A program made the translations under genes and the position numbers. A model generated the notes under the pieces. It made no database searches and was not told the DNA's origin. It worked only from the letters and a program-made list of their open reading frames with translations. Positions 3,256-64,000 of a stretch of 64,000 nucleotides of DNA are shown here, piece by piece (position 1 is the first letter of the stretch; each line of letters starts with the position of its first letter). This stretch comes from Octopus vulgaris. Lineage: Eukaryota. The stretch spans positions 7,688,001 to 7,752,000 of the forward strand of contig OX597823.1 of the NCBI GenBank assembly GCA_951406725.2. Reading direction: 5' to 3'.

Positions 3256-3465
3256 CTCTTTTTACTCTTTTACTTGTTTCAGTCATTTGACTGCGGCCAT
3301 GCTGGAGCACCGCCTTTAGTCGAGTAAATCGACCCCGGGACTTATTCTTTGTAAGCCCAGTACTTATTCTATCGGTCTCTTTTGCCGAACTGCTAAGTGA
3401 CGGGGACATAAACACACCAGCATCGGTTGTCAAGCAATGCTATGGGGACAAACACAGACACACAA

Positions 3466-3496
<31 letters not shown>

Positions 3497-3665
3497 CATA
3501 TATATACGACAGGCTTCTTTCAGTTTCCATCTACCAAATCCACTCACAAGGCTTTGGTCGGCCCGGGGCTATAGCAGAAGACACTTGCCCAAGATGCCAC
3601 ACAGTGGGACTGAACCTGGAACCATATGGTTGGTTAACAAGCTACTTACCACACAGCCACTCCTT
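3256..3665 (-). mobile_element. SINE family A
   Basis: Full-length match to the other copies. Confidence 0.9.
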
Positions 3666-4183
3666 TTTTTTTTTTATTTAAAAGATATTTTTTTGATTTA
3701 TTATTATTATTATCATTATTATTATTATTACTAGTATTGTTGTTATACATACATACATACAAGCATATGTAATGATAATAATAATAAGTGGATGTAAACA
3801 CATGAACAAAATAAGAATAAACAAAAACAACAACAAAAACAAATTACACGAACATATATAAACAGAAGATACAAATAATACAGGCATCCACCACACACAC
3901 ACACACACACACTAAATAAACATAGACGCACATAGAGATATAAGCATGCGCAAATGAAGACATACAATAGAAATACAAAATGACTGACGGTTAGTAAGGA
4001 GAGACACAAATAAGAAAGAAGAAAACAAAGGACCACTGATGCGGTCACAGGAGTGTGAACTCTCCGAAATAAGATTAAGATTAATGTAAAAAATAAATAA
4101 CACTGAAGCAAAATAACACCAAATATATAGTGCGTGTGTTTTTATTGGCTAAACTGGCAATATGACCATTCCAAAATACAACA

Positions 4184-13759: not shown

Positions 13760-16700
13760 TTGTGTGTCTGTGTTTGTCCCCCCAACATCGCTTGACAACC
13801 AATGCTGGTGTGTTTACGTCCCCGTCACTTAGCGGTTCAGCAAAAGAGACCGATAGAATATGTACTGGGCTTACAAAGAATAAGTCCCGGGGTCGATTTG
13901 CTCGACTAAAGGCGGTGCTCCAGCATGGCCGCAGTCAAATGACTGAAACAAGTAAAAGAGTAAAAGAGTAAACAGACTTGGCAGTTATGGTACTTGTACC
14001 GAAAGATCGCCACATTAGAAAGAGTATATTTGTGTTCTTGTATTTAAATCTATTTCACTTCTCATGATTTATGCTAGTTGTGCATAAAATTGATATTGTC
14101 TCATTAATGACAAACTCTGCCAATTCAGCTATACACTAATGTGCTATCCTAATTTATGACTGCTTTATACAGTAGATGACACATTGCTGCTGATTGGGAA
14201 GGAGATTGGGGGTATCTTCTCTGGGGAGCAGTCAGTAAAGCACAAGAAGGTCTTTTTTTTTTCCACTCATCAATAGTGTTTGCATTCATATTACACCCAC
14301 AGTGAGACTTTCTACTATTAAAGTGTATATATTCATGTATGCACAATGACACATATCTACATGTACAAACACATGTCATATTGGTATGGCAGAGTTGGAA
14401 CTTTCATATACTAGAAGTTACTCTAGAATCACACATCACAAATAATCTTGGAGAATAATAAAGTGACCATACTCTGAGATGTGTCAGCTCATACAGACAC
14501 GGAGATGGAAGCAATTCATCCCCATATTATTGTTAAAGGCTTTTGGTAAAAGCAATGTCCCCTAATTGATGTCTCTATTCAAACAGATGACAGTTATATT
14601 TTTTTACCCAAATATAAAAATGTGTATCAGGAGATATTCAAAATGTGAGGATTGAAAACCGAACCAATCATCATCATCATCATCACCATCGTTTAGTGTC
14701 CACTTTCTATGCTAGCATGGGTTGGACGGTGCAACTGGGGTCTGGGAAGCCAGAAGGCTGCACCAGGCCCAGTCTGATCTGGCAGTGTTTCTACGGCTGG
14801 ATACCCTTCCTAACGCCAACCACTCCATGAGTGTAGTGGGTGCTTCTTACGTGCCACCGGCACAGGTGCCAGACCAGTCTGGCAAACGGCCACGATCTAA
14901 TGGTGCTTTTTATGTGCCACTGGCACAGGGGCCAGGCGAGGCTGGCAACGGCCACGAACGGATGGTGCTTTATACGTGCCACCGGCACAAGGCCAAATCT
15001 TCACCATAAAAAGTACTTGGTGAATAAAAAAAAAATGATGCAGGCAAATATGCAATCAAACTCCCAAAATATAGAAACTACTGCTACAATTGCACACACA
15101 TATTGCAAAGGATATTCTCAATGCAATAAAACTGAAACAAAATACCATGTGCACGATTGTATTTTTACTGCTTTTTCCCTCATTAGCATTTGTGTATAAA
15201 ACAAAATATATTTTTTCTATTCTAAACTTAGGTGTTGGAAGTCAGTTTCTTGCTTTAGCTACAGGAATTTTGTTGATGGCATTATTCGGTATGTTCAATG
15301 TACATCGCCATGGTTCCATTAACTCTGCTGCAATTGTTCTATATGCACTTACTTCAGGTAAGCACACTTATATTTCTTCTGCATCTATTATTGAAAAATA
15401 AAAAATTTAAATTACAAATTTTAAAATAGCATTCAAAAATTTAGTTCAGTAAGCAATCCTACTTGCAACATTCTGTTTTAATGTTTAGTCTTTTTTTGTT
15501 GTCAACTTCAGTGTTGGGTAAATGTCACCAAGTTTTCAAAAGATTTGTGCAATGTAATTTATTGAAAAAAAATAATATGTGTAGGAGTGACTGTGTGGTA
15601 AGTAGCTTGCTTACAAACCACATGGTTCCGGGTTCAGTCCCACTGCGTGGCACCTTGGGCAAGTGTCTTCAACTGTAGCCTCGGGCCGACCAAAGCCTTG
15701 TGAGTGGATTTGGTAGACGGAAACTGAAAGAAGCCCGTCGTATATATGTATGTGTGTCTCTGTGTTTGTCCCTCCAACATCACTTGACAACTGGTGTGTT
15801 TACATCCCCGTAACTTAGTGGTTCGGCCAAAGAGACTAATAGAATAAGTACTAGGCTTACAAAGAATAAGTCCTGGGGTCGATTTACTCGACTAAAGGCA
15901 GTGCTGCAGCATGGCCACAGTCAAATGACTGAAACAAGTAAAAGAGTAAAAAGACAGATTAAGATGAATCGCAAACTTTTTTTGTATTCTAAAATTACAG
16001 GGTTCAAACAATAGTTGAAATTTTAAAAGTTTTGTTTCAAGGATTCTGTTACATCTACATTTTCAGGTTTACTATGGTGACTGCTGCATTTGGATTTTCT
16101 AATGAAGCTAGTTTTGAAAAACTTATTTTAAATAAAATGAATGATGATCAGATTAAACTTTTGAGTTTTAGATGACAGTTACCAGTATTTGTAGTAAAAA
16201 AAATATATACATAGTCATTATCTGCTTCAAAGTAAAACTATTAACTCTTTCAATCAGCTATATCTGGCCCAAATATCCTACCTGTTTTATGTTTAAAGCA
16301 GCCAGATCTGACTTCTCACACCTATCCTACAATGTCATTCTAAAAATAAACAATTACATTATCAAAATTTTGAAGCTATGGAGTAAACCATGATTAATTC
16401 AAAACAATGTGAAACAGTCAGAATTACATTTGACAGAACAATCTGACTGCTAAATGGTTAAAAATGTAAGTACAGTCAGCACTATTTTATTTACAATGAA
16501 AATAGATAACATTTTGATTTCCTTTCAGGTGTGTCTGGATACATTGCTGCAAACTATTACCGAAAGATGGGTGGTGACAACTGGGTATGGAATATCAATC
16601 TCACTTCAGCTTTGTTCGCATGTAAGTACATTACTCTGAAAAGAACTTTAGAAATTTATTTATCTTTACTATACCAAGTTGTTGTGACTAAGCCATATTT

Positions 16701-19700
16701 CTCTTTGTGTCAAAGTTACCTAAATATGGTTCATAAAGAATTGACCTAAAATTAATGTGACCTACTTATATCACCAACAGAATATCAGTGCAATCATATT
16801 TTTCTCGCTTTCTCAGATGATCTAAGTCAAAGAATACAAAACTTACTTCAGAAATATTTAAAGATATGTTCTCATTTTGTAAAAAGTAAAAATGTTTGAA
16901 CAAGCAAACTATAATCAGAAAAAACAAACTATATGGTTTTCATACAAAAGACTGATCTGTACTAAGAACAGATATATAATCACTTCTTTTTTATTCTTTT
17001 ATAATCTTCTTTTTTCTTTATTATATTTTTGTTCTTTTTATAAAGGAATTGGGTTTATAAAATTTCGTCTTCACAGTATCATCCTAGTGCCTGTTGTTAT
17101 GATTTCTGAGAAAGGAAATATAAAATTAGCCCTAGTGAGACTTGAATTCAGTGAGCCAGAACTTAATTCTGTAAAACTTACTATAAATCAGAAATCACAT
17201 GAAAACTAGCCTATGATAAATGTTTTGATAAAGTTAAAACATTTATATAGGTTGAACTGCCAAAATATTTACAGTAAAAGAAAAATTATTAACTGATAAC
17301 CAATATTAATTTTTACCTTCAGTAGAGATGGGAGGCCACTCTGGATGCAAATTTACTCCTTGATTCGGTCATCATCAAAACACATTCTCTTTATAAATTT
17401 CTGAAAGATCAGCAATGAATTACTATCTCTACTAATTATAAACTTATTCTTAAGAAAATTATTAATTAATAGATTTTTCATGGCTAAAGTCCTATCTTAG
17501 GAATAATTGAAATTGGTATCTTAGGAATATATTTCTTCCTGATTAATTTTTTAATGTTATATATATTTTTTCTATTCATTTCAATTCTAGTGCCATTTTT
17601 CATTGTGTGGGCCCTTATAAACTCTGTTGCATGGGGCTATGGAACCACTCAAGCTTTACCTTGGACTACAGTTGTCATGTTGATATGCTTATGGATGTTT
17701 GGTAATATATTTTTGTCATTCCAGATTTTTCATTTAGAATAAAATCAAACAAATAATTAATTTATGTTCTCAAAGGATTGTATTTTATACAAATTGTTTG
17801 TGCTGTAGTTTATATGTGTCTTGACGAATAACTTTGATGAGTTTGTAATTATAGTCAACTGAAAGCATTCTGTTTTAACAGTTTAATACTTTATTTAAAG
17901 ATAAAATTCACTATATATTTGATTTTATTTCCCTATCCATCTAATATGCAAATATTAGTTCTAGTACCATTTAGAATCTTTCGGAATTCTTAAACTGACT
18001 ACTCTACTAATTACAGAATCTAAAAATTCTTTTTTCTATTTTTGTTTCAGTAATTTTTTCTCATATCATTATTGTTATTATCATCACCATCATAACAAAC
18101 CTATATCCAGGCTGACATGGGTTGGGAGGGTTTATCAGTTCCTCCTTGGGATATGATATCCTCTTATCAAACCTCACTACTTCCTTATATGTCTTCGAAT
18201 GTTATGAGCCCTATCAACTATCAATATACGACAGTTTTTAAACTGGTACTTATCATCTATTGCACGTCTATACTATTGCAGTTATCGCTCTTGCACATAC
18301 CAATTCTTACCTTTACCTCTCATAATTCCTCTCTACCTTTTATACAGCAGAATATTGAATCTTCAACAAATAAATTCATTTCTTTCCAGATTATGTAGAT
18401 TTTCCAAATTAAATCCCCAATTCTCACCACTATGCAGTATGATACTTATTTTGCATGCTTTTATCACCAAGGGAGAAACCATTTGTTGCTAGCAGAGGTA
18501 ATAGCTCCCTAAACTAACTCTACCCACCCTTTCCTTATTCTAGCTACTGTGCCCCCTATCCATAGCACACATAAGGTAACCCAGCAATCATAAACTTTCT
18601 ACATCTGGAATGCCATCTAAGCATTTTATGGGCTCTCACACATCTAAAGTCACAGTTCTTTATCAAAAGATCCTATTCATCATCATCGTCATTTAATGTC
18701 CACTTTCCATGCTGGCATGGGTTGGATGGTTTGACTGAGGGCTGGCAAGCCAGAAGGCTGCACCAGGCTCCAATCTGAACTGGCAAGGTTTCTACAGTTT
18801 GATGCCCTTCCTAATGCCAACCACTTCGAGAGTGTAGTGGATACTTTTTACATGCCACAGGCACAGGAGCCAGTCAGGTGGCACTGGCAACAAAAAATGG
18901 TGTTTTTAACATACCACTGGCACAGGTGGTACTGTCATCGGCCATGACAACGATTTCACTTGCCTCAACAAGTCTTTGCAAGTGCAGTTTATTGCCCCAT
19001 GATTGAAGGGTGCTTTTAAATGGGCTGGTTATGCTGCACTAGCATAGGCCACGGTTACAGTCTCACTTGACTTGCCAGGTCTTCTCAAGCACAGCATATC
19101 TCCAAAGGTCTTGGTCACTTGTCATTGCCTGAGTGAGGCCCAATGTTTGAAGCTCATGCTTCACCATGTCATCCTAGGTCTTCGTAGGCCTACCTCTTCT
19201 GCAGGTTCCCTCTACTGCTAGCATGTGACACTTTTTTATACAGCTATCCTCATCCATTTGCAACACATGATCATACCAGCACAGTCATCTCTCTTGCACA
19301 CCACATCTGATGCTTCTTAAGTCCAACTTTTCTCTCAGGGTGCTTACACTCTTTCATGTATGCACACTGACATTACACATCCAGCAGAGCATACTGGCTT
19401 CATTCCTTGCAAGCTTATGCATGTCCTCGGCAGTCACAGCTCATGTTTCACTGCCATGTAGCATGGCTGTTCGCACACATGGGTTATACAGTCAACCTTT
19501 TACTCTGAGTGAGAAGCCCTTTGTCACCAGCAGAGGTAGGAACTCTCTGAACTTTGCCCAGGCTGTTCTTATTCTAGCAGCTACACTTTCAGAGCATCCA
19601 CTCCTGCTACTGACTTGGTCACCTAGGTAACAGAAGCTATCAACTACTTGTAGTTTTTCCCCCTGGAATGTGACGGAAGCTGTTTTCTGCACATATTCAG

Positions 19701-22700
19701 TGTTTATTGTTCCTGAGCATTTGCCACACACAAAAACTATGTTTCAGTCAACCTTCCTTTGATATTGCTGCACCTCATATGTGTCCATAGCTTATACTGG
19801 GTAGATCTTATAGAGTTTCTACCTACGCCTTTTCTACAGATTGAGCAGGGCCATCAACCTGAAGGGATTTGTGGTTTGTCTGCCTTCCTACTTATTAAGA
19901 CTTGATTTTTGCAAGGTTGACTCTAAGGACTTTTGATTCTAGACCTTTTTCCACACCTGAAACTTCTCTAGTTCTGATAGTGACTCAGCTATTAGAGCAA
20001 GGTCATCAGCATAGAGAAGCTCCCAGGGCAACCTGTCTTGAATTCCCCTGTTATTGCCTGGAGGACTATGATGAATAAGAAGGGGCAAAAAAATTTTTTA
20101 AGTAACCTAAAGTAATCTTCCTTGTAGATCACACACCAAAGTAGTACCTTATCAAAACTAATATGCAGTCAAAGTTGAAAATTAAGTTTATGTAACATAA
20201 TGAAAGTTAACAGACTGCAGAGACAATGATCCTTAGTCCAGAAAAATATAAATATGCCTTTCCTCTTATTGTCATTTTAAGACTTACTTCTATTTTCAGT
20301 ACGTCACAATTTCTATCTCTCTTTTTTATTCATAATAATTTTTGAGAATAAATCCATTTAATTTCTTACATAGAACATGCATGACATTCATATTTATGCT
20401 TAATGAAAATCATCCATTATGCTACTGAAGAACCTAAATCTAGATTTGTTATAGCATATATATTGTATCTGATTTTTTGGATTTTATACCATTGAGGCTA
20501 AAATTGCTTCTGAATGCTCTGCAGGTTGCAAGATTGTCATTTCTTGGACACCTCATATTAGCCAAGAACCAGAATTTCCCTTTGAGATTCAAAGGAATCA
20601 TTTTTCCATTTGCCATAGTACAGTCAAAGATGAATATTAAAGTTGTGGTTTTAAAAGACAAGAAGTAGGTGATATATAGTGAAATATTGCAGTAATATGA
20701 ACAATTATTTTGCTACCTTGCCGAGAGGGATAGTTTCCCTGATAAAGGGACAGGTGCAAAACAGCACCTGGTTCTCCTGGCTGGACTTTGGGTGTTTTAC
20801 AGTGAAGAGGATTCAGTAAGTAACTATAATGTAGTTAATGCCACTATGTGTAACATGATAACCATAAGCTGTATAAACCAAAGATTGCTGGCTCTTCTCC
20901 CACTGCCTGTCACACGCTCCCAAAGCAACTCAAACCCACATTTACAATAACAGCCATGACTCAATCTATTACAATTAGCAGCCAAATCACACCATCTTAC
21001 ATTGGAAAAGGAACACTGAACAAAGTTGCTATATATATCATCATAATCATCATCATCATTTAGCATCTGTCTTCTATGCTGGTATAACTGCAAACGGGTA
21101 AGCCAAGGAACTGCACCAGGTTTCAATCTGAGTACAACAGGGGTCACCACCACCCCCTGCTAGAGCCTCGTGGAGCTTTTAGGTGTTTTCGCTCAATAAA
21201 CACACACAACGCCCTGTCTGGGAATCGAAACCGCGATCCTCCGGCTGCCCTAACCACTGGGCCATTGTGCCTCCACATATATACCTTAAGCATAACTGTT
21301 ATTATAATGGTTATGTACATGAAGGATAAAATAAATATATAATGTTTTAGTAACTGTTCTAGCAAAATTCTTTTCTTTTTATAGTCATACTTGGTTTTAA
21401 TTTCATTACATTTCTTTCCAGTTCTTTCAACATTTTTTTTTTCTGGTAGAGTTAGTTTGAACTTGAAGTTAAGAAAAACTTAGGAAGGGAAACTAAAAAG
21501 ATAAAAATTACAGTTGGTTAAAATTGATGGATAGAATAGAGCCGGAAAGGTTATGAGAAAGAATGAAAAGGGGAAAATGGCAGAAGAAATAACATTGAAC
21601 ACATATGAAAAATGTTATGTAAAATAAAGATGGAAGAAGGATTTCTAGCAAGGCTGAAATTCTGTAATTTCAGGTAGAGACAAATTTAACTTAGACATGA
21701 AAAATAAAACTGACAAAATTTTATTAGTGAAGCTCATGAATGCCTTTAAAAAAAAAATTATTTCTCTACTTTAAATTTCTAGACTACATGAACCAACTTA
21801 TTCTGAATGTAAAGGGAGGTAACATTGTATCCATTCATATTTGTATTTTCTGCTCTTTATTTTTACCTAATATAGTTTTGACAAAAGAAAGGCAAAGAAA
21901 AAAAAAAGCAGAATAAATGGAAAGGGGGAGGGAAAAAAGAGAGAAGAAAGAGAAAAAGTCATCAATGCAGCACCAATGCTTCGATTGGTCACACATTACG
22001 AGGTTCAACGGAACCTACTGAAGCAAGCCAGCACACTCACAGCATTACCATGAGCGATGGCAAAGCTAAGGTGTTTGAAAAGCCAAATGCCCTCGTGGAC
22101 ATCACCTGACACTGCAGTGAGGCAAGCTAAGGCATTCATGAGCTTCACAGACAAAATATTTGTATTAAGTTTTAAAATAACTTCATTTTATTATTTTTAA
22201 CTACACAAAAATCACCATTTCGAGCTTGGCCGTTGTCAGTACTGCCAGACTGGCCCCCCGTGCAGGTGGCACGTAAAAAGCAACCACTACACTCTTGGAG
22301 TGGTTGGCGTTAGGAAGGGCATCCAGCTGTAGAAACTCTGCCAAATCAGATTGGAGCCTGGCGCAGCCATCTGATTCGCCAGTCCTCAATCAAATCGTCC
22401 AACCCATGCTAGCATGGAAAGCGGACATTAAATGATGATGATGATATTAAATAAGATCAGTTGAGAACTATGAGGTATATAGGTTCTAGTTCAGGAAGTA
22501 AATCTCATCAATCCATAGAAATAAATAGATTTTAGAATTAAATATTGTACCCACCACATAGAAATCTTTATATATAAAAGAGAAGTTGTGTGTCTGTCTC
22601 CTACGATTTAGATTCCTAACTACTCCCACATTTTGTGGTGCAGTTTAACCAAAACCGGGTATCTTATAGTAGTGATTCATATCGAGTCCTTCTGGGTATT

Positions 22701-23463
22701 AGCGTGCGTCTACGATGAGTCTACGATTTAAAAAAAAATTTACCATCATTTTTTTCCATTTTAATGCATTTTTTCACTATTATATAAGGGAAGTAACTCT
22801 CTAAAGATGTCTACGATGAGTCAACGATTTAAAAAAAAATTTACCATCATTTTTTTCCATTTTTAATACATTTTTTGCTATTTTCTGGCTATAACTCTCT
22901 AAAAATGCTTATATAGTTATTTCCCTTACAAACCCGAGCAACGCTGGGCGATACTGCTAGTACATTATAAAGTACTCTAAAAGTAGATTTTGAAGCATAT
23001 ATTTTGTATTTATTACCAGTAATTCATCATTTTATATGAAGTGAAGTTGTAATGATATTATTTGCCATTGAAGTGATATTGAGTAATACATATCACTTGA
23101 AAAAAAGTTTATATATTTTTATCTTATTTAAACTACTAAATGCATTTTTATTTACAGTGGGATACCCTTTAACTGTTGTTGGTGGCATTTTTGGTAAAAA
23201 TTGGGCAAATGGTTTTGATGCTCCTTGTCGAACAAAAAATATTGCTCGTGAAATTCCCTCTGCTCCATGGTATAGGTCTGCATTTGCTCATTGCCTTGTA
23301 GGAGGATTTTTACCATTCAGGTAATATTTTTAGATATATTTTACTTCAATGAATCTGCAAAATCCATAGGCACCACTCCTTTCTCTTTTTGACTAAACCA
23401 TTGAAAGAATTCAGAACCAACATATATATATATATATACATTATATATATATATATTCAGAAC

Positions 23464-23517
<54 letters not shown>

Positions 23518-23716
23518 TCTTTTACTTGTTTCAGCATTTGACTGTGGCCATGCTGGAGCACCGCCTTTAATCGAGCAACTCGACCCCGGAACTTATTCTT
23601 TTGTAAGCCCAGTACTTATTCTATCGGTTTCCTTCGCCGAACCGCCAAGTAACGGGGACATAAACACACCAGCATCGGTTGTCAAGCAATGCTAGGGGGA
23701 CAAACACACACTCACG

Positions 23717-23753
<37 letters not shown>

Positions 23754-25005
23754 GACGGGCTTCTTTCAGTCTCCGTCTACCAAATCCACTCACAAGGCTT
23801 TGGTCGGCTCGAGGCTATAGTAGAAGACACTTGCCCAAGGTGCCACGCAGTGGGACTGAACCCGGAACCATGTGGTTGGTAGACTAGCTACTTACCACAC
23901 AGCCACTCCTGCGCCTATATATATATATAATACATAAAGAACAGGACATCACCAATGAATGAAAAATACGTAAACACATAATGAGAGACAAGTATGGAAG
24001 CTCAGAGACAAGTATGGAACCTGCCCAAAAATGCCTTCAAGGTGCTACCTCCAATGCAATATAATTTTGTCACTAAAATGGTACACAATGCCACCACCCC
24101 CCACCAAAGACTATCTTGGGGATAAATATGGATAGTCCCCTTGTTATTGTATGCATCATCATCATTCATCATTGTTCGACCGTGGTCAAGACAATGGAAT
24201 TTACCATGCTACGCCAGACTTCACGGTCCATCATGACATTACGGAGGTCCTGTTGCTGGATACCTGTATCCCTGGAGATTACATCAGGGTAGGAGAGTGT
24301 GCACCCTCTGGTATTGCGAGTAGATGGCTTCCAGAGGAGAAGAGTAGAAATTACCTCTTTTTCAGCTCTACAACAATGTCCAGCAAACTGGACTCTCTTA
24401 CCTTTCACAAGAGATGACACAGGTGGTAGTTTCCCATATATTTGCATTTTGGTTGGATGGCGCTTCCATGAGAGATTTTGAGCTCTCATAAGGAGGCGAG
24501 TGTAGGTTCCATCCAACCGCCTCTCAAGCATACATAAAGGAATATTAATGGAACATTCCCGTCAAAACTTCTACCAAATACAACTACAATAGGTTGTATA
24601 GAATTTTGGGGGATAGACAAGATAAAGTTTGTGCCATCCTCGAGATCAGGTGCCCTGCTGATGTTAATGTCTCTTAGAAAATCTAAGAGATAGAGGATAA
24701 CTATGGACAACTGCTTCAAACCTTTCAGATAATAAATTCACATTTATTCCAGTAATAATTCATGCATTTGGTTTTCTGAGTGATTGTCTAAATGACTTTC
24801 TGGAGACCTAGGATTTTCAGAAAAAGAATTCAACCAGCAGGAGTGGCTCTGTGGTAAGTAGTTTGTTTACCAACCACATGGTTCCGGGGTTCAGTCCCAC
24901 TGCATGGCATCTTGGGCAAGTGTCTTCTACTATAGCCTCGAGCCGACCAAAGCCTTGTGAGTGGATTTGGTAGACGGAAACTGAAAGAAGCCCGTCGTAT
25001 ATATG

Positions 25006-25058
<53 letters not shown>

Positions 25059-25750
25059 CTGTGTTTGTCCCCCTAGCATTGCTTGACAACCTATGCTCAT
25101 GTGTTTACGTCCCCATCACTTAGCGGTTCGACCAAAGAGACCGATAGAATAAGTACTGGGCTTACAAAGAATAAGTCCCGGGATCGATTTGCTCAACTAA
25201 AGGTGCTGCTCCAGCATGGCCGCAGTCAAATGACTGAAACAAGTAAAAGAGTAAAAGAGTAAAAGAATTCAACCAGCTGACATGCACATTACAAAAACAA
25301 TCTGTCATCAGTAGAATAGTAAAAGTGTAACATTGTTTGTTATCTACATTTCAATGATGGAGCTTTGTGTCTTTGTTAGAACCCAGTTCCTTCCTTTCAG
25401 AAACATTTCAAATAGTTAAAAACAGAAGAGTGCTCATGCATACAGTTTGTATGAGGACTCTGTATGAAGAAATGTATGTTAACATAATGCTGTTGGCAAA
25501 ACATTGATTTTAATTTTATAAATGCATTTTTCCTGCCACTCCTATTCATATTGAATTCCACTTCAATTTCTACCCGTTTTTATGTTTAAATTTTATGTAC
25601 TAAAACCAGTGTTTGTGTAATCCAAGATTATTTTCAGTTTCCAGTAATGTTAGTTACATTTATAGTAAGTTGTTGCATGATGCAGTTTGGTGTATGGAGT
25701 AACCAACAGCACAAAGTGGTAAATATAGAATGAATTAAAGCAAATATGAA

Positions 25751-25804
<54 letters not shown>

Positions 25805-28800
25805 AGCAAAACGCCCCACCGTCCAATGGATGGTGCTGAGTTGTCAAACATTTAAACCAAATTTTCTCAAAACAACTTGTCCAACCGTCTCATAGTCCTC
25901 TCCTTTGAGAAACACTGATTTAACCTAAATTTGAGACACTAGCAAAAGACAGATTTCGACTGATGTACTTGCGCATACAAATGCACGTTCCCATGGCTTT
26001 AGCGATTGCATTCTCACCTGGAATCGATTTTTGTAATTTTTTCAAGACTTATACACACCCTGATACTGTTGGTATCTACATATCAAATTTGAGTGCAATT
26101 GGATGGAGGTTGGCCAAGATCCTAGAAGACATACACACACACACAGAATGGATTTTATATAATAGATATTTTTTTAAATGGGTACAGATTTTATTGCTGA
26201 CTAGTATAATTTCTGCACTTGATATTCACATCAACCAAGCAAAGGAATAAATATATTGACAGCTTCTATTGCAATGCCTTCTAAACACAATGCAAGCCTC
26301 CATTTTATGAAAATAAACCTCCTTTTATGGAAATATGTACTCGACAGCATTAGTAAAACTTCTTAAAAACCAAACCCTGGTGGTAATTATTAGCAATTCT
26401 TAAATAGTAAGGCAGATAGTTTCATGAAATTTATGTATCAATCAAAAAGATTTTACATATAAGCACAGGAGTGGCTGTGTGGTAAGTAGCTTGCTAACCA
26501 ACCACATGGTTCCGGGTTCAGTCCCACTGCGTGGCATCTTGGGCAAGTGTCTTTTGCTATAGCCCCGGGTCGACCAATGCCTTGTGAGTGGATTTGGTAG
26601 ACGGAAACTGAAAGAAGCCCGTCGTATATATGTATATATGTATGTGCGTGTATGTTTGTGTGTCTGTGTTTGCCCCACTAGCATTGCTTGACAACCGATG
26701 CTGGTATGTTTACGTCCCCGTCACTTAGCGGTTCGGCAAAAGAGACCGATAGAATAAGTACTGGGCTTACAAAGAATAAGTCCCGGGGTCGATTTGCTCG
26801 ACTAAAGGCGGTGCTCCAGCATGGCCGCAGTCAAATGACTGAAACAAGTAAAAGAGTATAAAAGAGTAAAGAGTATATAGATCAAAGTTACATTTAATCA
26901 AAGCCGGCTTGAACCGATTGTTTATGCCAATGCATCTGATAACTCTGAAAGATTATCCAAGTGTCTCCTTTGCCTGCCAAGATCAGATTTTCTTCCTAAG
27001 CTTATTCAATTCTTAATTCCTTCAAGTTACCAATTATTACCACTATACTTTTGTTTACTGTCACTAATTAGAGGGAAATATCAATTGAGATTGTTTTGCA
27101 TATATCATTCAGCTTGTGATATAATTATTTATCAAAATTCATGCCATTGACCTACTTGAGTTATTTCCCCTTATTCATTTTACTTTCCATTGTATAACTG
27201 CTCTTACCTATTCTGTGTCATCAGGACAATATACATCAAAGTATAGTGTAAGTAAATTTGAGTAATATGTAAATACTGTTTAAACACAAAACAATTACAT
27301 GTATGTCTATATAAAAATCTATTGTATTATAGTTATTATAAATGTATCATTTATGAACAAAAGGAATTATGTTTTCTTTGCAGTGCTATTTCTGTTGAGT
27401 TGTATTATATATTTGCCACACTTTGGGGACGTGAACAATACACACTCTACGGTATCTTATTTGTTGTTTATGGAATTTTGCTCAGCGTGACAGCTTGCAT
27501 CTCTGTAGCTCTTACCTACTTCCAATTATCTGCTGAAGACTACAGATGGTGGTGGAGATCAATTTTTAGTGCAGGGTAAGTTTTACTTCATGCTTGAAAC
27601 ACCTCTTTGAAGGTTTATAAATTGATTTGTATTTCAATTTTTGGGAAGTGAACTCAAAAAAAATTGCTTAGGATTTTCAAATAGTCTGATCTGGAACTGT
27701 CAACATTTTCATTTAACATTCTGTATTAGAAGCCAACAAAGATCTACATGGTAGCTTGATTTGCTAGAAATACTAACCATACTGTCTCAAAAAGAAAGTC
27801 AATATAGTCCTCAATATACAAAATAGTCACATTTGAAATTCCTTTTATTATAGATCTGTTGAATCAAGGCTGACATAGAGCTAGACAATTAGAGAAAAGG
27901 CTTTATTCATGTTTATTTAAACTGTATCAGCATTTAAAAAAATCTGACAATGATGATAAGTTATTACTTAAGCTCATAACATTATAAAATACCATTTGAA
28001 ATCTTTAAAATCCTCAAATTTTCAGAACAAAGGTCGCATTTCTGTCAACAGTAATTACATTGAGAATTAGACAAGGAGTGATTAACAACCAATAACATAT
28101 ACATACCAAGTCTCTTTTAACAAATTAACTTCAAAATGGGAACCATATTTTTAAGTTTTAAATATGTACATTTTAAATTTCATCTATTGACCTAAACTAT
28201 GCCAGGAATCAGGTCTACCATAAATTGGATAAGATATGGTAAATATACCCCTACTATGCCATACACAAAACAACCCTGAAATTAAGTGTTTATTTGATTT
28301 CTTTGACATTGTTCTGCTTGAGTATTGCTGTGTTTGGCTACTTAACCCTTTAGCATTTAAACCAGCCATATCCGGCCAAAAGTATTCTGCCTGTTCAAAC
28401 TGGCCAGATCTGGTCTCTCACACTAACCCTACAATATTGTTTTAAAAATTAACAGCTACCTCATCAAAATCTCATAGCTACCAGATAATGCATGATTAGT
28501 TCAAAACAATGTGGATGAAGAAGCATTAATTTTGGCAGAATAATGCGAACACTAAAGGGTTAATTACCAAAATATAAGCATTAATGAAAGTTCTCTAAAT
28601 TGTTTCCAGTTATTATGAATCTTGTCCTACCAATTATTAGCTACTATTCTAACACTAATTATTTCATGTAAAGAGTAGACGCTGTCAGCTAGTATATTTT
28701 ATATTATCTACAACATGTATATTTCTCTTAATGAATAATAAATTGTTTTCTTTCCAGGTCCACAGGATGCTTCGTATTTCTTTATGCACTTTTCTACTAC

Positions 28801-34461: not shown

Positions 34462-34496
34462 AGGGTGAAAAGGAACACACGAGTTGATATATATAT

Positions 34497-34900
34497 GAAA
34501 AAACAAGTCAAGATAGAAAATGCTAAAATAATTTTATAAAGAACATTTCAGTACCGGTTTCGGTCATTTTGAGACCTTTTCAACTGTAACGATTAAATAA
34601 TTAAATTTAGAAAATTTAAAAGAAAAGTTTTTTTAAAGGAATATTTGTATTAGTGTTCAAATATAAGTGGCATTTTCCTTGTGTCTGCCTTTCTGTGCAA
34701 ACAAGAGAGACAGAGAAAGGCAGAATGCCACTTATATTTGAACACTAATACAAATATTCCTTTAAAAAACTTTTCTTCTAATTTTTCTAAATTTAATTAT
34801 TTAATCGTTACAGTTGAAAAGGTCTCAAAATGACCGAAACCGGTACTGAAATGTTCTTTATAAAATTATTTTAGCATTTTCTATCTTGACTTGTTTTTTC
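34497..34900. mobile_element. Fold-back element with ~180-bp inverted arms inserted in (TA)n; each arm has a hammerhead-like motif
   Basis: 34497-34674 is the near-perfect reverse complement of 34724-34900; flanked by TA runs. Confidence 0.85.
34811..34848 (+). ncRNA. Minimal type-I hammerhead ribozyme motif, U3-A8 variant (mirror copy at 34549-34586 on minus)
   Basis: CAG-TTGAAAA-GGTC(TCAAAAT)GACC-GAAA-CCGG-TA-CTG: stem I, core, stem II, GAAA, palindromic stem III, GUA triplet. Confidence 0.65.
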
Positions 34901-35178
34901 ATATATATATATATATATATCATCATCATTTAACGTCCGCTTTCCATGCTAGCATGGGTTGGACGGTTCAACTGGGGTCTGGGGAGCCCGAAAGCTGCAC
35001 CAGTCCAGTCAGATCTGGCAGTGTTTCTACAGCTGGATGCCCTTCCTAACGCCAACCACTCCGAGAGTGTAGTGGGTGATTTTATGTGCCACCGACACAG
35101 GTGCCAGACGAGGCTGGCAGACGGCCACGCTCGGATGGTGTTTTTATGTGCCACCGACACAGGTGCCAGATGAGGCTG

Positions 35179-49000: not shown

Positions 49001-50778
49001 TTCATCCTTTCGGGGTCGATAAATTAAGTACCAGTTGCAAACTGGGGTCGATCTAATCGACTGGCCGCTCCCCCAAAATTTTGGGCCTTGTGCCTAGAGT
49101 AGAAAAGAATATACACACTTCTGAGATGGTAAAATAAAATATACTGTCAAGTTAAGATTAATTTCTAAAAAATGTAATGACCTTACCTAAAAGGTAACTG
49201 CCCGGAATGAAGAAAATTACACTGAAATATGTAAAGATTAAACAATCAAAATACAATAAATAATATATTTATAAATTGGTAAATTTTATTCTACATTCTG
49301 CATTAAAATAATGCTTATGTTAGGGAGTTAACTCAATCAATTACATTCCTTCCCAATAAAATCTGGCTTATAAAGTGTAAGAAAGCATTAATGAGCTTAG
49401 CCATAGAAAAGGAATTATAAGTGGCAACCCAAATCCTGACATAGTTTCAATTTCTCTTTGAATCTTTTTCATTTACAATGTTAAAGCCTTTGGGAAAAAC
49501 ATGAATATTGTACTTTCCTTTTTCTTTAAAAATATGGTATACAAAATGATATCAAATGTTCCCAGACTCTCTCTTTCTCTTTTCTCTCTTTTACTTGTTT
49601 CAGTCATTTGACTGCGGCCATGCTGGAGCACTGCCTTTAGTCGAGCAAATCGACCCCAGGACTTATTCTTTGTAAGCCCAGTACTTATTCTATCGGTCTC
49701 TTTTGCCAAACCGCTAAGTTACGGGGACGTAAACACACCAGCATCGGTTGTCAAGCGATGTTGGGGGGACAAACACAGACACACAAACATATACACTCAC
49801 ACTTATATATATATATATATACATATATACGACAGGCTTCTTTCAGTTTCCGTCTACCAAATCTACTCACAAGGCATTGGTCAGCCCGAGGCTATAGTAG
49901 AAAACACTTTCCCAAGGTGCCACGCAGTGGGACTGAACCCGGAACCATGTGGTTGGTAAGCAAGCTACTTACCACACAGCCACTCCTGCGCCTAACTAGT
50001 TATGTTTAGTAAAAAAATAACTTATTTACCAAAGTTTTAACATCACACCCTTCGAAATAGTCACCTTGTGCAGCAATATACCTGTCCCAGTGTTCCTGCC
50101 ACTTTTGGAATCTGGGAAGTTGTTTTCCGTAAGTGGATCAAGAACCTTCCGTGATTTGCTCTGGATCTTGACAGTGGTGTTAAAACAGCGACCTTAGATC
50201 TGGATATTTATCTTGAGGAAGTGATGAAAGTCTGCAGGTTCTGTATCTGGTGAATAGCGGAGGTACAGAAGTGATTCCATGTTGTTTTTGGAGATAAATT
50301 TATGAGTGAGGAGGGCTCGGTGACAGGGTGCATTGTCATTGTAATGAATTCTTTGTGCTTCACAGATCCAGTTGCCTTCACCAAATGTCCTCCCTCCAAT
50401 GCTTCAAAACATCGTTGATTGTCCTCCAATGATCCTCATGCACAAGCTGAGGAATTTTCTAAATCAATGGAAATTGTAGTTGTGATACCAGTGCCGGCGG
50501 CATGTAAGAGAACCATCCGAATGTGGCTGTTGCCAGCACTGCCCCCACTGGCCTCCGTGCTGGTGGCACGTAAAAAGCACCATCCGATCGTGGCCGTTTG
50601 CCAGACTCGTCTGGCACGTAAAAAGCACCCACTACACTCACGGAGTGGTTGGCGTTAGGAAGGGCATCCAGCCGTAGAAACACTGCCAGATCAGACTGGA
50701 GCCTGGTGCAGCCTTCTGGCTTCCCAGACCCCAGTTGAACCGTCCAACCCATGCTAGCATGGAAAGCGGACGTTTTAC

Positions 50779-50809
<31 letters not shown>

Positions 50810-53800
50810 CCCAGGGGTGACGCTTGTGGAAGATCTTCCAGATCGCTCATCATATTCCAGGGATGTTCTTCTGCTTTTGAAGCCCCTGTGCCACTCGAAA
50901 CATTGTGTACAACCCATTGTCTCATCACCATAAACTTGCCAAAACGTGCTCAATGTCTTTGTAGCAGACTTCCCAAGTTTAACACAAAATTTCCCGTTGG
51001 CACTTGTTCCTGTCCATGACAAAATCACAGACCACAGCTTCCACATGATCACAAAGACACAAATTTCACAACTTGCTAAGTAAACATAGCGATGTCACTC
51101 GCCACATTGCCTCGTGGTGGTCACTGCGAGCTCTCACTGCGCATGCAGCCATGTGCTGCCATCTGATGATGCACTACAGAACTAATCAGGGAACTTTTTG
51201 ATACCACCTCATATTTGTGATTAGATGATGATGATGATGATAAACAAGAAGCCAATGATGAAGTGCAGTGCATGTTCTTGAAATATGAAAATGGTGACCA
51301 AGAGGCTCCACAGAATTTCGTTTTGTATCCCCTTAGCTTCTGTTTTAATGAGTTTGACTTAAATGAACATAGAGTGTAGTGTAGTAAGAAATTTGCTTCC
51401 CAACATGGTTCTAGATTCACTCCCACCATGTGGGACCTTGAGCAAGTGCCTTCTGCTATAGCCTCAGGCTGACCAAAACCTTGTGAGTGGATTTGGTAGA
51501 TGGAAACTGAAAGTAGCTTTTCGTGTGTATGTGTGTCTGTCTGTCTGTGTCTTTGTGTCTGTGTCTGTGTGTGTGTGTGTGACCACTGCTTTACAACCAT
51601 AACTTAACAGTTTGGCAAAAGAGACCAACAGAATAAGTACCAAGCTTTAAAAGAAAATAAGTACTGTGATTGATTAGTTCAACTAAAATTCCTCAAGGCA
51701 GTGCCCCAGCATGGTCGCGGTCTAAAGACTGAAACAAGTAAAAAGATAAAAAAGAAAAAGCTGAATTGCATTCATTTTGCATATAAGAGGCCAATTTTTT
51801 ATATATATTAATGAGAATTACCAAAACTTACCTGAATATATAATTATAGTAAAGTAATTCAATTTTACTGAAAAAAAAAATAGTAGAAGTAGTTTGATAA
51901 ATAAATAAAAGTATTCTTGGAAAAGTTTTAGTTTTAAAAGTTGAGTACTTAGATTCTTTTTATTTCTCTACTTTTGCTCTATGTCAAGATAAAGAGCTAA
52001 ATTTAAGACAGAACTGGAGATCACTCACCTCTTCCTAAGACTAGATGTAACTGGTAACTATTTTTCACTACAATAACTTTCACAAAACAGACAACATTAA
52101 GAACAATCCTTGCGGCAGGATTTTCCTATCTTCAATTCTTTACCTTTCACTGACCCCAAAATTTGTTTCCTAAATCTAGGATATCATACCCTTAATACTG
52201 TGCACAATTGAACAATACTACCATAGTAGCTTTCGATGAATAAACACAACAGTAGCTGCACACTATGAACGATGTTTCAGTATTGTTGACAGCATTGTCA
52301 TCTCTTATTATAAAAGGCAGATTTTATCTGCCTCCCTTTGGGAGTTATACAAATCTACAATATAGGATTTCTTCAATTACAATTTACCTGGCATTTTTAA
52401 GAGTACAATGCATCGCGTCATGCCAGGTCCAGTTTTTAAAATTTAAACTCCAATTAAGCAAAATTTACAGAAAACTCACATTCTGGTGTGTGTGTCAAAT
52501 GCTTTTCTTAGTCTGGTTTACACCACACGCAAACGCACACACACAGTGGGCAACGAATAAAATGAAAGTAAATAGCGGACAGAGTGATTTGAGGAAGACT
52601 AAAGTGAAAGTATTCTGTCTATGACGATGATAGATACATGAGTAAAATGTATGGGAAGCTAAGAGCTAAGAGTGAGTGAAAATGTTCTTGGAAGAGAGTA
52701 ATTAGTAATAAAGTAAACATACACTCATACATACATACATACATACATATATACATACACACACACACACACATACACACACACATACATACACACACAC
52801 ATACATACATACATACATATACATACATACATACATATACATACATACATACACACACACACATACACACACACACAGTATTGAAGCTTGAGAACAATCA
52901 GATACATTTGCAACACATCTGTTGAAAATATTATTGTTCACACACATACATATACATATATACATACAGACAGACAGACAGATAGACACACACACACACA
53001 CACACATGATCCAGCATGGCCACAACCTCAAGGCTGAAACATATAAAAGAATAACAGAATATAAATGTGTGCAAAGTACAAGAAATATTAATGCAGTATA
53101 TGGGGATTGGACAATAAGCGTAAGGCAGTGTCAATGGTGGTTCCAGAAATCCCGAGCCATAAACTACAGCCTAGAAGACGAGCCTCATCCTGAAAGATCT
53201 GTAGAACTCGACAAGGACATCCTGAAAACCCTGGTGGAACAAAATATCATCGTAACTGTTGAGGAACTAGCAGAGAAGCTTGGATTTGGTCATTCAACCA
53301 TTCATTGACACCTGTGTGCTATCGGAAAAGTCAGCAAATTGGGTCAATGGGTTCCTCACGAACTTTCCGAGTCTAATTGCATGCAGAGAGTGAATGTATG
53401 CTTTTCTTTGCTGTCATATCTCACCACTACTGCGCTATGTATATCTATATATATAAAACTGTAGTTGTGTGAGTGTCTGTCCCCTTCGATTTAGATTCCT
53501 AACTACTCCCACATTTTGCGGTACAGTTTAACCAAATTCGGGTAGCTTATAGTCGTGATTCATATCGAGCCCGTCTGAATATTAGCGCGCGTCTACGATG
53601 AATCTACGATTTTAAAAATAATTTAACATCATTTTTTATTCCATTTTAATGCATAATTTTTCGTGTGTCGATGGCGGCGGAGTTGGCGTCCACGCTCACA
53701 TCTGCACCTGTGGGGAAGGGAGTGTAAGGAAATCAACGTCGTAATGCGTTGTCAAGGAGACCAGTGTTCTTTTAGAACAACGACTTCATGGCTTCAAGAC

Positions 53801-56800
53801 ACCAAAACAGAAATGGCTAAGAAAGCGTCTACATGAGTCTACGATTTAAAAAAAAATTTACCATCGTTTTTTTCCATTTTAATGCATTTTTTCGCTATTA
53901 TATAAGGGAAGTAACTCTCTAAAAATGTCTACGATGAGTCAACGATTTTTAAAAAAAATTACCATCATATTTTTTCCATTTTTAATGCATTTTTTGCTAT
54001 TTTTTGGCTATAACTCTCTAAAAATGCTTATATAGTTATTTCCCTTACAAACCCGAGCAACGCCGGGCGATACTGCTAGTTACTAATATTAACTAAACTA
54101 GATATTAAAAAAATACACTAGCAAAAATTCCATCTACAAAAGCCATTATATTTGGAAGAGAAATATTGGAATAAAATATGCAAGATAGAACTTGATTGAT
54201 TAAAATAATAGAACAATAACATTTATATTACCAGAAGTTAATTGCAAATTACCAGATAATGAGATCTGTGCCAGAATCAGACTACAGATATATGACAGTC
54301 ATAATCAAGTACTCCAAAAGAGTATATAGATTGAGGCATGTTATATACAGAATAAGCTAAATTTAATAGTTATCGCCATACTAATATGGCAGTCTATAAA
54401 TATAAGACTAAAGCTGTCGCTGATTAGCTCCAAGAGGCCATCGCCTCTAGCTAGCTATATGACACACGAACCTGCGTCCATTACAATCTTCGAACAGGGG
54501 AGGTCAGCCGCTTCACCTTGCTAGTCAGACATCTGCAGACATGTTTCAGGGTTGTTGCCCTTTATCAATGCAGCGTAGTCAGAGCCAGCAGGTGTTGCTA
54601 CTGTTCGAAGGTTGTAATGGACGCAGGTTCGTGTGTCATATAGCTAGCTAGAGGCAATGACCTCTTGGAGCTAATCAGCAACAGCTTTAGTCTTATATTT
54701 ATAGACTGCTATATTAGTATGGCGATAACAATTAATATCCAGTAATGCTGCCGTAATCTCCTTTAGAGAGACTTAGTAATTTTAATATTTCTATTAAGCT
54801 AAATTTAGTTTTATCCGAAGAGTTATTCACAATTAGGCAATCAAAGGTTTTTGTCTGTGAAACATATTTTCACGCAACCATTTGTTTCAACTACCAATCA
54901 GGAATCAGTTGCTAATATCAGTTGCTAGATTTAGGAAACAAATTTTTGGGTTAGTGAAAGGTAAAGAATTGAAGATAGGAAAATCCTGCCGCAAGGATTG
55001 TTCTTAATGTTGTCTGTATAAGGATGTTGTCTATATAAGGATGTTCTAGTGTAAAATTAGCAGAACAAATAATTTGGAAACAAAATCAATTTGGGAATAC
55101 AATATTTTTTCAGATTTGATATAGAAGAAGAACAGGCAGATAGTAGGTAGATGAATGATAACCAAAGCACTGGTTTGGAGAGCAATTATATTGTAAGAAC
55201 TGAGTTGGAGTGTCACATAAGAGTGATTATAAAAGCTATTTGAATATATGTAAGCAAATAAGCAAAATAGATGTAAGAAAATTATTTGATTTTACTGCAG
55301 ATATGAACTGACCATAATCAATTAACTAAAGTGTGCTTAAATAACATATTAAATCAACAAACAAGAATGTCAATACAGATAGTAAAACAAAAAAATACAA
55401 TGATATTAAATTACAAAATTAGTTAAGAAAATATTTTTAGAATTGGTTATTAATAATAGATGGCAGGCAGAACTAAAAGACAATCAAACAGTAATCTGTG
55501 AGGGTTGATAAGAAGGAACTGTAGCATAAGAGAGAGGAGAAAAGTTTTTAGATAGATCATAAGAAGCAGTCAAACATATTTTGAAATGGCATAAATATTG
55601 CAATGGTCTTAAATCACTGCCATAACAAAAACTATTTTCTTTTTTAAGAATTAAAGGCTGTGTATGAAAGCTTTTCACTGCAATGGGTGATAGATGATAA
55701 TACAAAAAATATGGCCTTTGTTAGAGATAACTCTAAGAATCTGTACAATTTCTTTAATGAACATTTTACATATAAAGTAAGAGTGAACCAATGAACTTCA
55801 AAATCTACTGTGATAAGTTTTTCAATTATTTAACAGTTTACTAACTTTTTCACTTACTACATTGTGTAAAATGGTTAGAATTAGAAAGGACATCCAACTG
55901 TAGAAATCATGCCAAAGCAGACAGTCCTTTGGCTTACCAGTTCCTGTTAAACTGTCCAACCATAGCAGTATAGAAAATGGACTTTAAATGGGGATGATTA
56001 ACAGGAGAGCTGGATATTGCAAAAGGATTATCATTGTATTTGATGCATAAAAGATTTTGGAAAGAGCACAAAGGACAAATAGAGATATAGCTAATTATCC
56101 TTATTTGTATCTGCTAAGTTTCTTTGCTCAAATTTTAATAAAACAGGACATTAGAATTTGAATGTCTCCAAGTTTCAATTTCAGTCTATTTAAACATCTG
56201 TTTTATGGGTTTTAAATTTCAATTGAAACTTTATAAATAAAAAATAAAATTCAAGATCTGATTTAAAATTACATTGTTCAATAAAGATTTATTTACTATT
56301 ATAGTGTAATCTTGGCCAATCCTTTTGAGACAGGAATTTTTGTTAAAATACATGTATTTTTCTGTCAAACTGATATATTTTTTAACAGGAAAGCTCTAGT
56401 AAAAGATATGTAAATAAATACCTTGCTTCTATGATATCTTTATTGAATTCAATAAATACCACAATAGCACCTGGAAGAAAAAATAATTTCTTTTCAAAAT
56501 GATGTATTTAAATTAATTAATGTTCAAATAACTTTATCATGATATTTCAAATTAATAAAACAATAACCTATTTTTTTACAAGGAAACCAAAGCTTTCTTT
56601 GCAACCTTGGGGCTTCGGGTTCAGTCACACAGCACAGCACTTGGTCAAATGTTTTCTACAATAGCCTTGGGTTGACCAATGCCTTGTTAGTGAATTTGAT
56701 ACAAAGAAACTGTGTTGAAGCCCGTCATTTATATATGTGCGCATAAAAGAGAGAGAGAGAGAGAGAGAGAGTGTGTGTGTGTGTGTGTGTGTGTCTGTCT

Positions 56801-62659: not shown

Positions 62660-63549
62660 AAATACAAAATGGGATAAGAACGCAAAACGGGACAACAAAA
62701 GATCCAGATAGACGATACAAAAAAACACAGACAGGTCATTTGAAGCCTTCTATCTTCAGTCAAGAACTGGATCATTCTCGAATCTAATGCTCTTAGCTTA
62801 ATTTTTCCTTGGGGCTGGCCAGATTGGAGCAATCTCAAGATTAATCAGCCGAAATTGCGAGGATTTCTAGCGTGTAGAATTCCTATTAGAGTGGATTCCT
62901 TATGTGTTTAAATATACACTATATTGTATGACTAATATATAGTCTTTTTGACTAAATTTTTACAAGTTAGACCACTGGAAATGTAAATTTTAATTAATTT
63001 TCATTTCCCTTTGATATGATTAAATATTGTAAGTTTTTGGATAATTTTTGATTTTAAAAATTGGTGGTTCTTTTTATTGCCGGCGAAGGACTGTGGCTGC
63101 GCAGTAGATTTTGAAAGAGTTAGGATGTATAAACACAGGGCAAGTAGTTTTGATTGTCCCGTGTGTATACGTTTAACCCTAGGTGGAACTGCTGAAGAAG
63201 ATCACACCTAGTGAGTTCCTTGATTCGCTAAAATAAGATCAGAAACCAATTGGTCCAGGAAACTAGATGGTAAAATGTTTTTCATTTTTCAATTTGTTCC
63301 TGTTGAATTTTATCCCAAATTTTTGTGGTTATAGAACCTAGCTGTTCTTTCTAGCATGTAGAATTCCTATAAGTGGATTCCTTATGTGTTTAAATATACA
63401 CTATATTGTATGACTAATATATAGTCTTCTTGACTAATTTTTTACACGTTAGACCACTGGAAATGTAAATTTTAATTAATTTCCATTTCCCTTTGATATG
63501 ATTATATATATATGTATATGTATATATGTATATATTTTTTTTTTTTTTT

Positions 63550-63948
63550 TTTTACTTGTTTCAGTCATTTGACTGCGGCCATGCTGGAGCACCGCCTTTT
63601 AGTCGAGCAAATCGACTCCGGGACTTATTCTTTGTAAGCCCAGTACTTATTCTATCGGTCTCTTTTGCCGAACCACTAAGTGACGGGGACGTAAACACAC
63701 CAGCATTGGTTGTCAAGCAATGCTAGGGGACAAACACAGACACACAAACACACACACACATATACATATATATACATATATACGACAGGCTTCTTTCAGT
63801 TTCCGTCTACCAAATCCACTCACAAGGCATTGGTCGGCCCGGGGCTATAGCAGAAGACACTTGCCCAAGATGCCACGCAGTGGGGACTGAACCCGGAACC
63901 ATGTGGTTGGTTAGCAAGCTACTTACCACACAGCCACTCCTGCGCCTA
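63550..63948 (-). mobile_element. SINE family A
   Basis: Full-length copy. Confidence 0.9.
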
Positions 63949-63952
63949 TATG

Positions 63953-64000
<48 letters not shown>

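Follow-up and report, generated by a model that had tools for sequence, protein, structure and literature searches.

Introduction

Non-LTR retrozymes are a known class of metazoan element. Those of mussels are repeats of 350-390 bp, and monomer cleavage is described as efficient in coral and mussel and weak in axolotl (Cervera and de la Pena, 2020, PMC7229834); a canonical layout of the metazoan hammerhead has also been described (Cervera, 2014). For Xenopus, cleavage is reported in one of nine dimers (Li, 2026). Animal retrozymes are thought to borrow the enzymes of Penelope-like elements (PLEs), the prior argument being co-occurrence and pLTR homology, and a PLE origin of retrozymes is argued by Li (2026). 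The layout of PLEs includes a tail at one end (Craig, 2021, PMC8557442), and in the account of Frangieh (2024, PMC11167929) the PLE enzyme cuts and extends both strands, with two start sites that bound the tail. The hammerhead core holds a C3-G8 pair (PMC3884650); natural hammerheads with U3-A8 have been published and reported active in vitro (Perreault, 2011, PMC3088659), and about 1,300 U3-A8 motifs are described for the Cercyon PLEs of Schistosoma (PMC4209133).

The window analysed here is a 64-kb stretch of Octopus vulgaris DNA, which contains a hammerhead-bearing insertion within an intron. We conclude that this insertion is very probably a truncated, head-to-head copy of a 362-nt non-LTR retrozyme, inserted by a Neptune-like Penelope enzyme. 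Like the described metazoan retrozymes, the octopus element has a non-coding monomer of 360-362 nt, a canonical type I layout, partial tandems, long duplications and co-resident PLEs; unlike those described in PMC7229834, it combines a U3-A8 core with the canonical layout, is mostly dispersed and forms short tandems. The octopus family moreover has inverted partner pieces and a tail, and the term 'inverted' is absent from the available text of Cervera (2020, PMC7229834). Cleavage and circles have been demonstrated for metazoan retrozymes, whereas in the octopus family they are predicted from sequence.

The earlier note on this DNA had suggested an undescribed non-autonomous, ribozyme-bearing element. 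Its non-autonomous nature and its relation to PLEs and retrozymes stand, and the family is unreported in the literature found; the class itself is known, however, and the U3-A8 pair is published. No report of an octopus or cephalopod retrozyme family was found in a search of the main text of open-access papers. What appears to be new is a retrozyme with the tail and inversion signature of PLEs, together with the presence in one genome of C3-G8, U3-A8 and mismatched C3·A8 sister families, the last of which is still amplified.

Structure of the window copy

Several structural claims of the earlier note were borne out by measurement. The 13-bp target-site duplication is an exact direct repeat (Table 1), and the fold-back, put at ~128-bp arms around a ~100-nt loop, has arms of 135 nt (54363-54497 and 54601-54735) that are 96% complementary and spaced by 103 nt. 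What had been missed is that the insertion is asymmetric, with the 62-nt tail on a single side. Read in modules, it consists of H-A on the minus strand, head to head with A-T on the plus strand, and the 10-nt word at the junction is common to the front of module H in the intact monomer and the reverse complement of the H/A border (comparison with loci L002 and L006). The fold-back was nevertheless not the mobile unit that it had been taken for, since other copies reveal the 362-nt monomer: the window copy is a truncated monomer with an inverted piece, not a fold-back element with terminal inverted repeats.

Two minor features of the predicted RNA may be mentioned. The 135-bp near-perfect hairpin at 54363-54735 may be a plausible ADAR substrate in the pre-mRNA. 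A small hairpin with a CUC...GAG stem, found by eye, lies shortly before the tail end in the window copy (54733-54794) and in three other loci (L091, L131 and L140); it is seen both in retrozyme families and in PLE tails and is a possible common reverse transcription signal.

Table 1. Features of the window copy and of the adjoining host-gene exons (positions in the window).
Feature	Position	Strand	Remarks
Host-gene exon downstream of element	51832..51867	-	36 nt, AG/GT borders
Target-site duplication, left copy	54353..54365	.	13 bp, begins with TA
Module A, 132 nt, monomer 3' part in hammerhead sense	54366..54497	-	terminates at first fixed 3' end (A-end, 54366)
Module H ('loop'), long bulged stem containing hammerhead	54498..54600	-	8 nt fewer on 5' side than intact monomers
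Type I hammerhead	54533..54573	-	C17 = 54538; UAC bulge and distal helix extend beyond
Hammerhead helix I	54573-54569 with 54537-54533	-	core UUGAUAA = 54568-54562 (U3-A8)
Hammerhead helix II, 4 bp, loop 6 nt; then GAAA; helix III palindrome ACAUGU	within 54533..54573	-
Inversion junction, 10-nt microhomology word	54601..54610	-	role inferred
Second, inverted module A (right arm)	54601..54732	+
Tail T, 62 nt, on inverted piece	54733..54794	+	terminates at second fixed 3' end (T-end, 54794)
Target-site duplication, right copy	54795..54807	.	13 bp
Host-gene exon upstream of element	56422..56470	-	49 nt, AG/GT borders

The 362-nt monomer and its genomic copies

Two genome searches gave 2826 and 2622 first-look candidates, and the best 40 from each were scored. 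In hammerhead sense the monomer is made up of modules T (62 nt), X (56 nt), H (112 nt) and A (132 nt), with a period of 360-362 (362 in L002, L041 and L043), and in tandem copies T comes after A and opens the next monomer. Its GC content is 43% (L120), and folded as a circle it has a z of -4.2. Neither the 362-nt monomer nor the window copy holds an RT and GIY-YIG frame. The structural features of a non-LTR retrozyme are present: a non-coding monomer of 360-362 nt, one type I hammerhead, tandems and, where there is a duplication, a length above 4 bp.

Copies are dispersed or in partial tandems, 5'-truncated, often provided with an inverted second piece and usually situated in (TA)n. End typing covered 92 loci, which represent 80 distinct insertions; the first 30 loci had been chosen with the fold-back query. 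Among 135 outward 3' ends, 115 fall at the A-end or the T-end, two fixed points separated by 62 nt, rather than at the ribozyme cut site; 25 ends are 5' truncations. Where an insertion has two fixed ends, it nearly always has one of each kind (36/39), as is also seen among the loci not chosen by the fold-back query (18/21; hand tally with script-merged loci restored). An inverted piece occurs in 56 of the 80 insertions, at least two hammerheads in 12 and contact with (TA)n in 60; the 20 insertions outside (TA)n comprise seven with an exact duplication of 9-13 bp and 13 with no exact duplication. Inversion junctions vary in position, and insertion lengths range from 256 to 1280 nt.

These 80 insertions bear directly on the view that a fold-back DNA transposon (a MITE, Mutator-like), bounded by terminal inverted repeats of 132 nt, captured a hammerhead. 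The window copy, with its long inverted arms, long duplication and lack of an ORF, would suit such a transposon, but 24 of the 80 insertions have no inverted piece, junctions and lengths are variable, a tail extends beyond the arm at just one side, direct tandems occur and duplication length is not constant. Because of these typed ends, truncations, inverted pieces and tandems, the transposon was excluded, terminal inverted repeats and a fixed-length duplication not being found in all copies; we assign it next to no probability.

Parts of the monomer are present in 19 of 24 listed sequencing runs (four organism codes). Contigs cover the monomer in all four of the runs for which they were obtained, although these are uninformative on level, strand, ends and circles, and the run type was guessed. 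Contigs across the A-to-T junction occur in two of the four, which a circle or a genomic tandem would fit equally.

The hammerhead motif

The minus-strand sequence at 54573-54533 agrees with that quoted in the earlier note and is the single match to the hammerhead pattern in the window. It has the features of a complete type I hammerhead: a UUGAUAA core with a Watson-Crick 3-8 pair, GAAA, a GUC site, the palindrome ACAUGU and three helices. It is not a minimal hammerhead, as had been supposed, since helix I is long and bulged (5-6 bp, the UAC bulge and a distal helix), helix II has 4 bp and a 6-nt loop, and helix III has 2 bp and a palindromic loop. Folded with intron flanks, helix I and helix II have pair probabilities of 0.78-0.92 and 0.97-1.0, respectively, which indicates that the arms leave the motif free, as had been proposed; the energy of helix III for the monomer in this flanked fold is an artefact of the folding program's ban on 2-nt loops. 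The 41-nt motif on its own has a z of -1.28 and so does not stand out from its shuffles, while the z of the 103-nt loop is -2.6; the argument for a non-chance origin comes from the family, with 1037 genome-wide matches against none for the reversed pattern.

Genome-wide pattern searches found U3-A8 1037 times, C3-G8 74 times, C3·A8 54 times and U3·G8 18 times, with no matches to reversed controls; the core-variant patterns differ slightly in their flanks, and a few of the 74 C3-G8 matches are due to chance. The U3·G8 motifs are scattered and have no dominant variant, and a C3-G8 core combined with the window family's own helix I gave no match in the genome pattern search. UUGAUAA occurs in 62 of 68 motifs; of the remaining six, three vary solely at position 7, which is free, and the other three have C3, G8 and G6, respectively. 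U3-A8 is therefore the state of the family and not random decay, and the motif is conserved among copies. An Rfam scan found no hammerhead in the window and none in seven loci, including C3-G8 sister loci with the canonical core; the hammerhead search that had been advised is thus positive by pattern and negative by Rfam, which misses canonical sisters too.

Of the first 100 matches listed, 98 have a palindromic helix III loop (AU in 63, UA in 22 and GC in 13; hand tally), and in the second retrozyme family described below this loop is CG. All four palindromes are in use, as expected if helix III pairs two ribozymes. Covariation was assessed in an alignment of the window copy, 25 of 30 U3-A8 loci and 10 of 12 C3-G8 loci, from which six loci truncated upstream of the core and one chance match had been dropped. 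Paired cells made up 85.7% compared to 76.3% in shuffles, and two-sided changes were found in 94 cells compared to 42.8 +/- 5.5 in shuffles and 5-15 in slid controls, in rows that are related and with a 3-8 split imposed by the two search patterns. Covariation of stems I and II, which the earlier note had put forward as a check, is thus seen in the two-sided changes, but two of the five measures were not above shuffles (69/500 and 459/500). Helix I pairs are swapped on both sides across relatives, and the sixth pair is G·A in the window copy as opposed to G-C or U-A in older relatives. Together, the palindromic helix III loops and the two-sided helix I swaps suggest that ribozyme structure is under selection across subfamilies.

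The window family shares its compensatory core pair with the natural U3-A8 hammerheads described previously (PMC3088659, PMC4209133). As far as those sources specify them, the published U3-A8 motifs are minimal PLE motifs or unspecified examples, whereas the octopus motif is canonical; unlike them, it also shares its genome with homologous families of the C3-G8 and C3·A8 types.

Sister families and the 3-8 pair

The C3-G8 sister loci have the same layout, with tail-like and X-like sequence and tandems. These families (L128-L139) share loop 2 and have tail-like ends, and they include two fold-backs (L138, L139) and a tandem of ~349 nt (L131). A second 360-nt family (L140-L151, e.g., G000:C4:80857193-80857949) is identical to the first at 205 of 360 positions (score 0, compared to -72.5 +/- 11.8 in shuffles), and by hand tally its 61 motifs comprise 36 with U3-A8 and 25 with C3·A8. 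The C3·A8 copies, at about 18 loci and including a tandem trimer, are 99% alike; 24 fixed differences separate them from the U3-A8 subfamily, and the palindrome ACCGGU is found in both. This young subfamily also has C7 and a UGC bulge. When positions 3 and 8 are masked, 31 selected rows give a tree (root not known) in which U3-A8 takes 2-3 changes and C3·A8 forms one clade (100/99). Among the C3-G8 relatives, U3-A8 would then occupy two clades apart from each other, and the young C3·A8 subfamily may have arisen from a U3-A8 lineage.

The idea that A-to-I editing produced or rescues the C3·A8 core was unsupported, as G8 was found in none of the 61 second-family motifs. Nor do the 24 fixed differences, which are unpolarised, support editing (12 A>G or T>C, seven G>A or C>T and five transversions).

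The broken 3-8 pair did not stop spread, and this is the main result against the simple reading. The spread of the C3·A8 subfamily means that an intact core is possibly not needed for mobility, the catalytic weakness of C3·A8 being deduced from how the two bases pair and from the data of Frangieh (2024) on G8C and C3G. It is accordingly possible, if clearly the less favoured view, that the same element is mobilised by the same PLE with a hammerhead that is dispensable or vestigial, uncleaved multimers serving as template and the motif binding a protein or acting as a fold. Such a view accommodates the near-identical C3·A8 copies, in which the UAC bulge is altered as well, and genomic ends that lie at the A-end and T-end. 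Furthermore, PLE hammerhead mutants are described as inserting normally in vitro, with no reads ending at the cut site (Frangieh, 2024, PMC11167929), and Naiads are described without hammerheads (Craig, 2021, PMC8557442). It accounts less well for a core, palindromic helix III and helix I pairing that are retained across families down to 57% identity, and for U3·G8 copies being so few and scattered; canonical retrozymes, moreover, are described as cleaving and circularising (Cervera, 2020, PMC7229834).

A more speculative proposal, which we consider unlikely, is that the retrozyme families record the whole history of the hammerhead 3-8 pair, with C3·A8 as a cheater that is cleaved in trans and inserted by the PLE. 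Since the C3·A8 and U3-A8 sisters have a palindrome in common, C3·A8 could be cut in trans, and by the same trans-pairing retrozyme RNA could cut lone intronic copies such as the window copy. The C3-G8, U3-A8 and C3·A8 sister families provide a natural panel on which to ask if the mobility of PLEs and retrozymes depends on hammerhead cleavage.

The proposed Penelope-like helper and mechanism

Searches for GIY-YIG gave 6136 candidates, of which 150 were scored and 30 loci examined; many matches lay in open frames of 781 aa. The frame belongs to a Neptune-like PLE with RVT_1, a CX4CX2C linker and GIY-YIG, which is abundant and young (L093-L097) and whose 3' region contains a minimal hammerhead with U3-A8. 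UUGAUAA...GAAACAU(G/A)U is found downstream in 18 of the 30 loci, with the ACAUGU palindrome in 17. The PLE 3' ends run into (TA)n; among 23 distinct motifs, six have a tail of ~35 nt and 17 have none, and one locus (L094) has one tailed and one tailless PLE end in inverted orientation. An antisense retrozyme copy lies just downstream of the PLE in another (L096).

The retrozyme copies show hallmarks of the PLE type, namely two 3' ends bounding the tail, an inverted 5'-truncated partner and partial tandems, and the co-resident PLE has an open RT and GIY-YIG frame and the same (TA)n target. As far as they are described, EN+ PLEs of the Neptune clade resemble the retrozyme in 5' truncation, partial tandems, an inverted 5' piece, a one-end tail, (TA)n targets and a hammerhead in sense near the 3' end. 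The retrozyme differs from them in having no ORF, a tail of 62 nt rather than 30-40 and a canonical rather than a minimal hammerhead. Only the core and helix III are alike between the monomer and the Neptune-like PLE, with no pLTR homology in the 30 GIY-YIG loci, whereas such homology is reported for 24 of 57 Xenopus families (Li, 2026). As similarity ends at the hammerhead, we infer the helper from shared behaviour and motif, not from descent.

No parent PLE was found among the 30 GIY-YIG loci of the 150 scored matches. That the copies instead derive as 3' fragments (pLTRs) from an autonomous PLE missed by the searches, and are not a self-contained small retroelement, appears highly improbable. 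Most PLE copies are described as 5'-truncated, with minimal hammerheads often single or on opposite strands (Cervera, 2014), and only the best 40 candidates were scored per DNA search, both of which would favour such fragments. However, T or an inversion junction precedes X wherever the sequence is intact, and the monomer is closed in several subfamilies; retrozyme modules follow none of the 30 GIY-YIG loci in sense, the insertion in L081 being antisense.

For the retrozyme inserted by a Neptune-like enzyme, the following sequence of events may be proposed. In multimeric transcripts, hammerheads would pair via the helix III palindrome and cleave, and the cleaved monomers would possibly circularise, as in mussel, coral and axolotl. 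At a TA site, the two DNA strands would then be cleaved by the PLE protein, which would start reverse transcription from a pair of adjacent internal positions, of which one includes the tail and the other does not. The two cDNAs could join through the self-complementary stem around the hammerhead, leaving a fold-back with the ribozyme in its loop, and the 10-nt shared word at the window junction may mark where they annealed. The octopus copies bear a mechanistic fingerprint, in that inverted insertions at (TA)n show both start sites, a different one at each end. With this fingerprint beside an apparently intact Neptune-like helper, the partnership is testable with the published in vitro PLE assay.

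Elsewhere in the window, a 424-nt fold-back (34487-34910; 94%) with (TA)n flanks is unrelated to the monomer. It resembles an inverted PLE 3' end and may have a hammerhead-like motif missed by the pattern.

The host intron

A contig from run X3 joins the two exons of Table 1, and one reading frame passes through both. The element lies between these joined minus-strand exons, which places the motif in sense in an intron, as the earlier note had stated. The gene is tentatively called TMEM241-like, after the human protein. Pfam gave no name for it from 16 short frames at 51.8-57.5 kb, and known peptide motifs likewise gave none; the intron and the sense orientation are supported by the contig, and the name TMEM241 is tentative.

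The further suggestion that the motif could cleave the intron finds agreement in its sense orientation and predicted freedom to fold, but such cleavage is doubtful because the helix III palindrome is built for dimers and there is a single ribozyme. An effect of the window copy on the host gene by co-transcriptional intron cleavage is thus very doubtful. Coral and mussel monomers are described as cleaving at about 0.8 and 0.1 per min, respectively, whereas axolotl monomers reach 6-22% in 1 h (Cervera, 2020, PMC7229834). Since its helix III has two pairs closing a 2-nt loop, the sixth pair of helix I is G·A and the window holds no second hammerhead as partner, the copy is likely weak. A spliced product across the intron also exists, although its source animal may lack the insertion. 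The lone window copy probably cleaves the host intron poorly. It is probably an ordinary passenger, with weak cleavage or with cleavage that would occur only with a partner RNA in trans.

The window also contains exons of a TM9SF/EMP70 gene at 15075-27576 on the plus strand, with Pfam PF02990 at 23040-23321 and 27262-27576. A SINE of ~420 nt, which we take to be an octopod SINE, is present in many copies (745-1221, 3212-3701, 23465-23942, 49570-50021, 63503-63980 and others), and about 35% of the window is repeated within the window.
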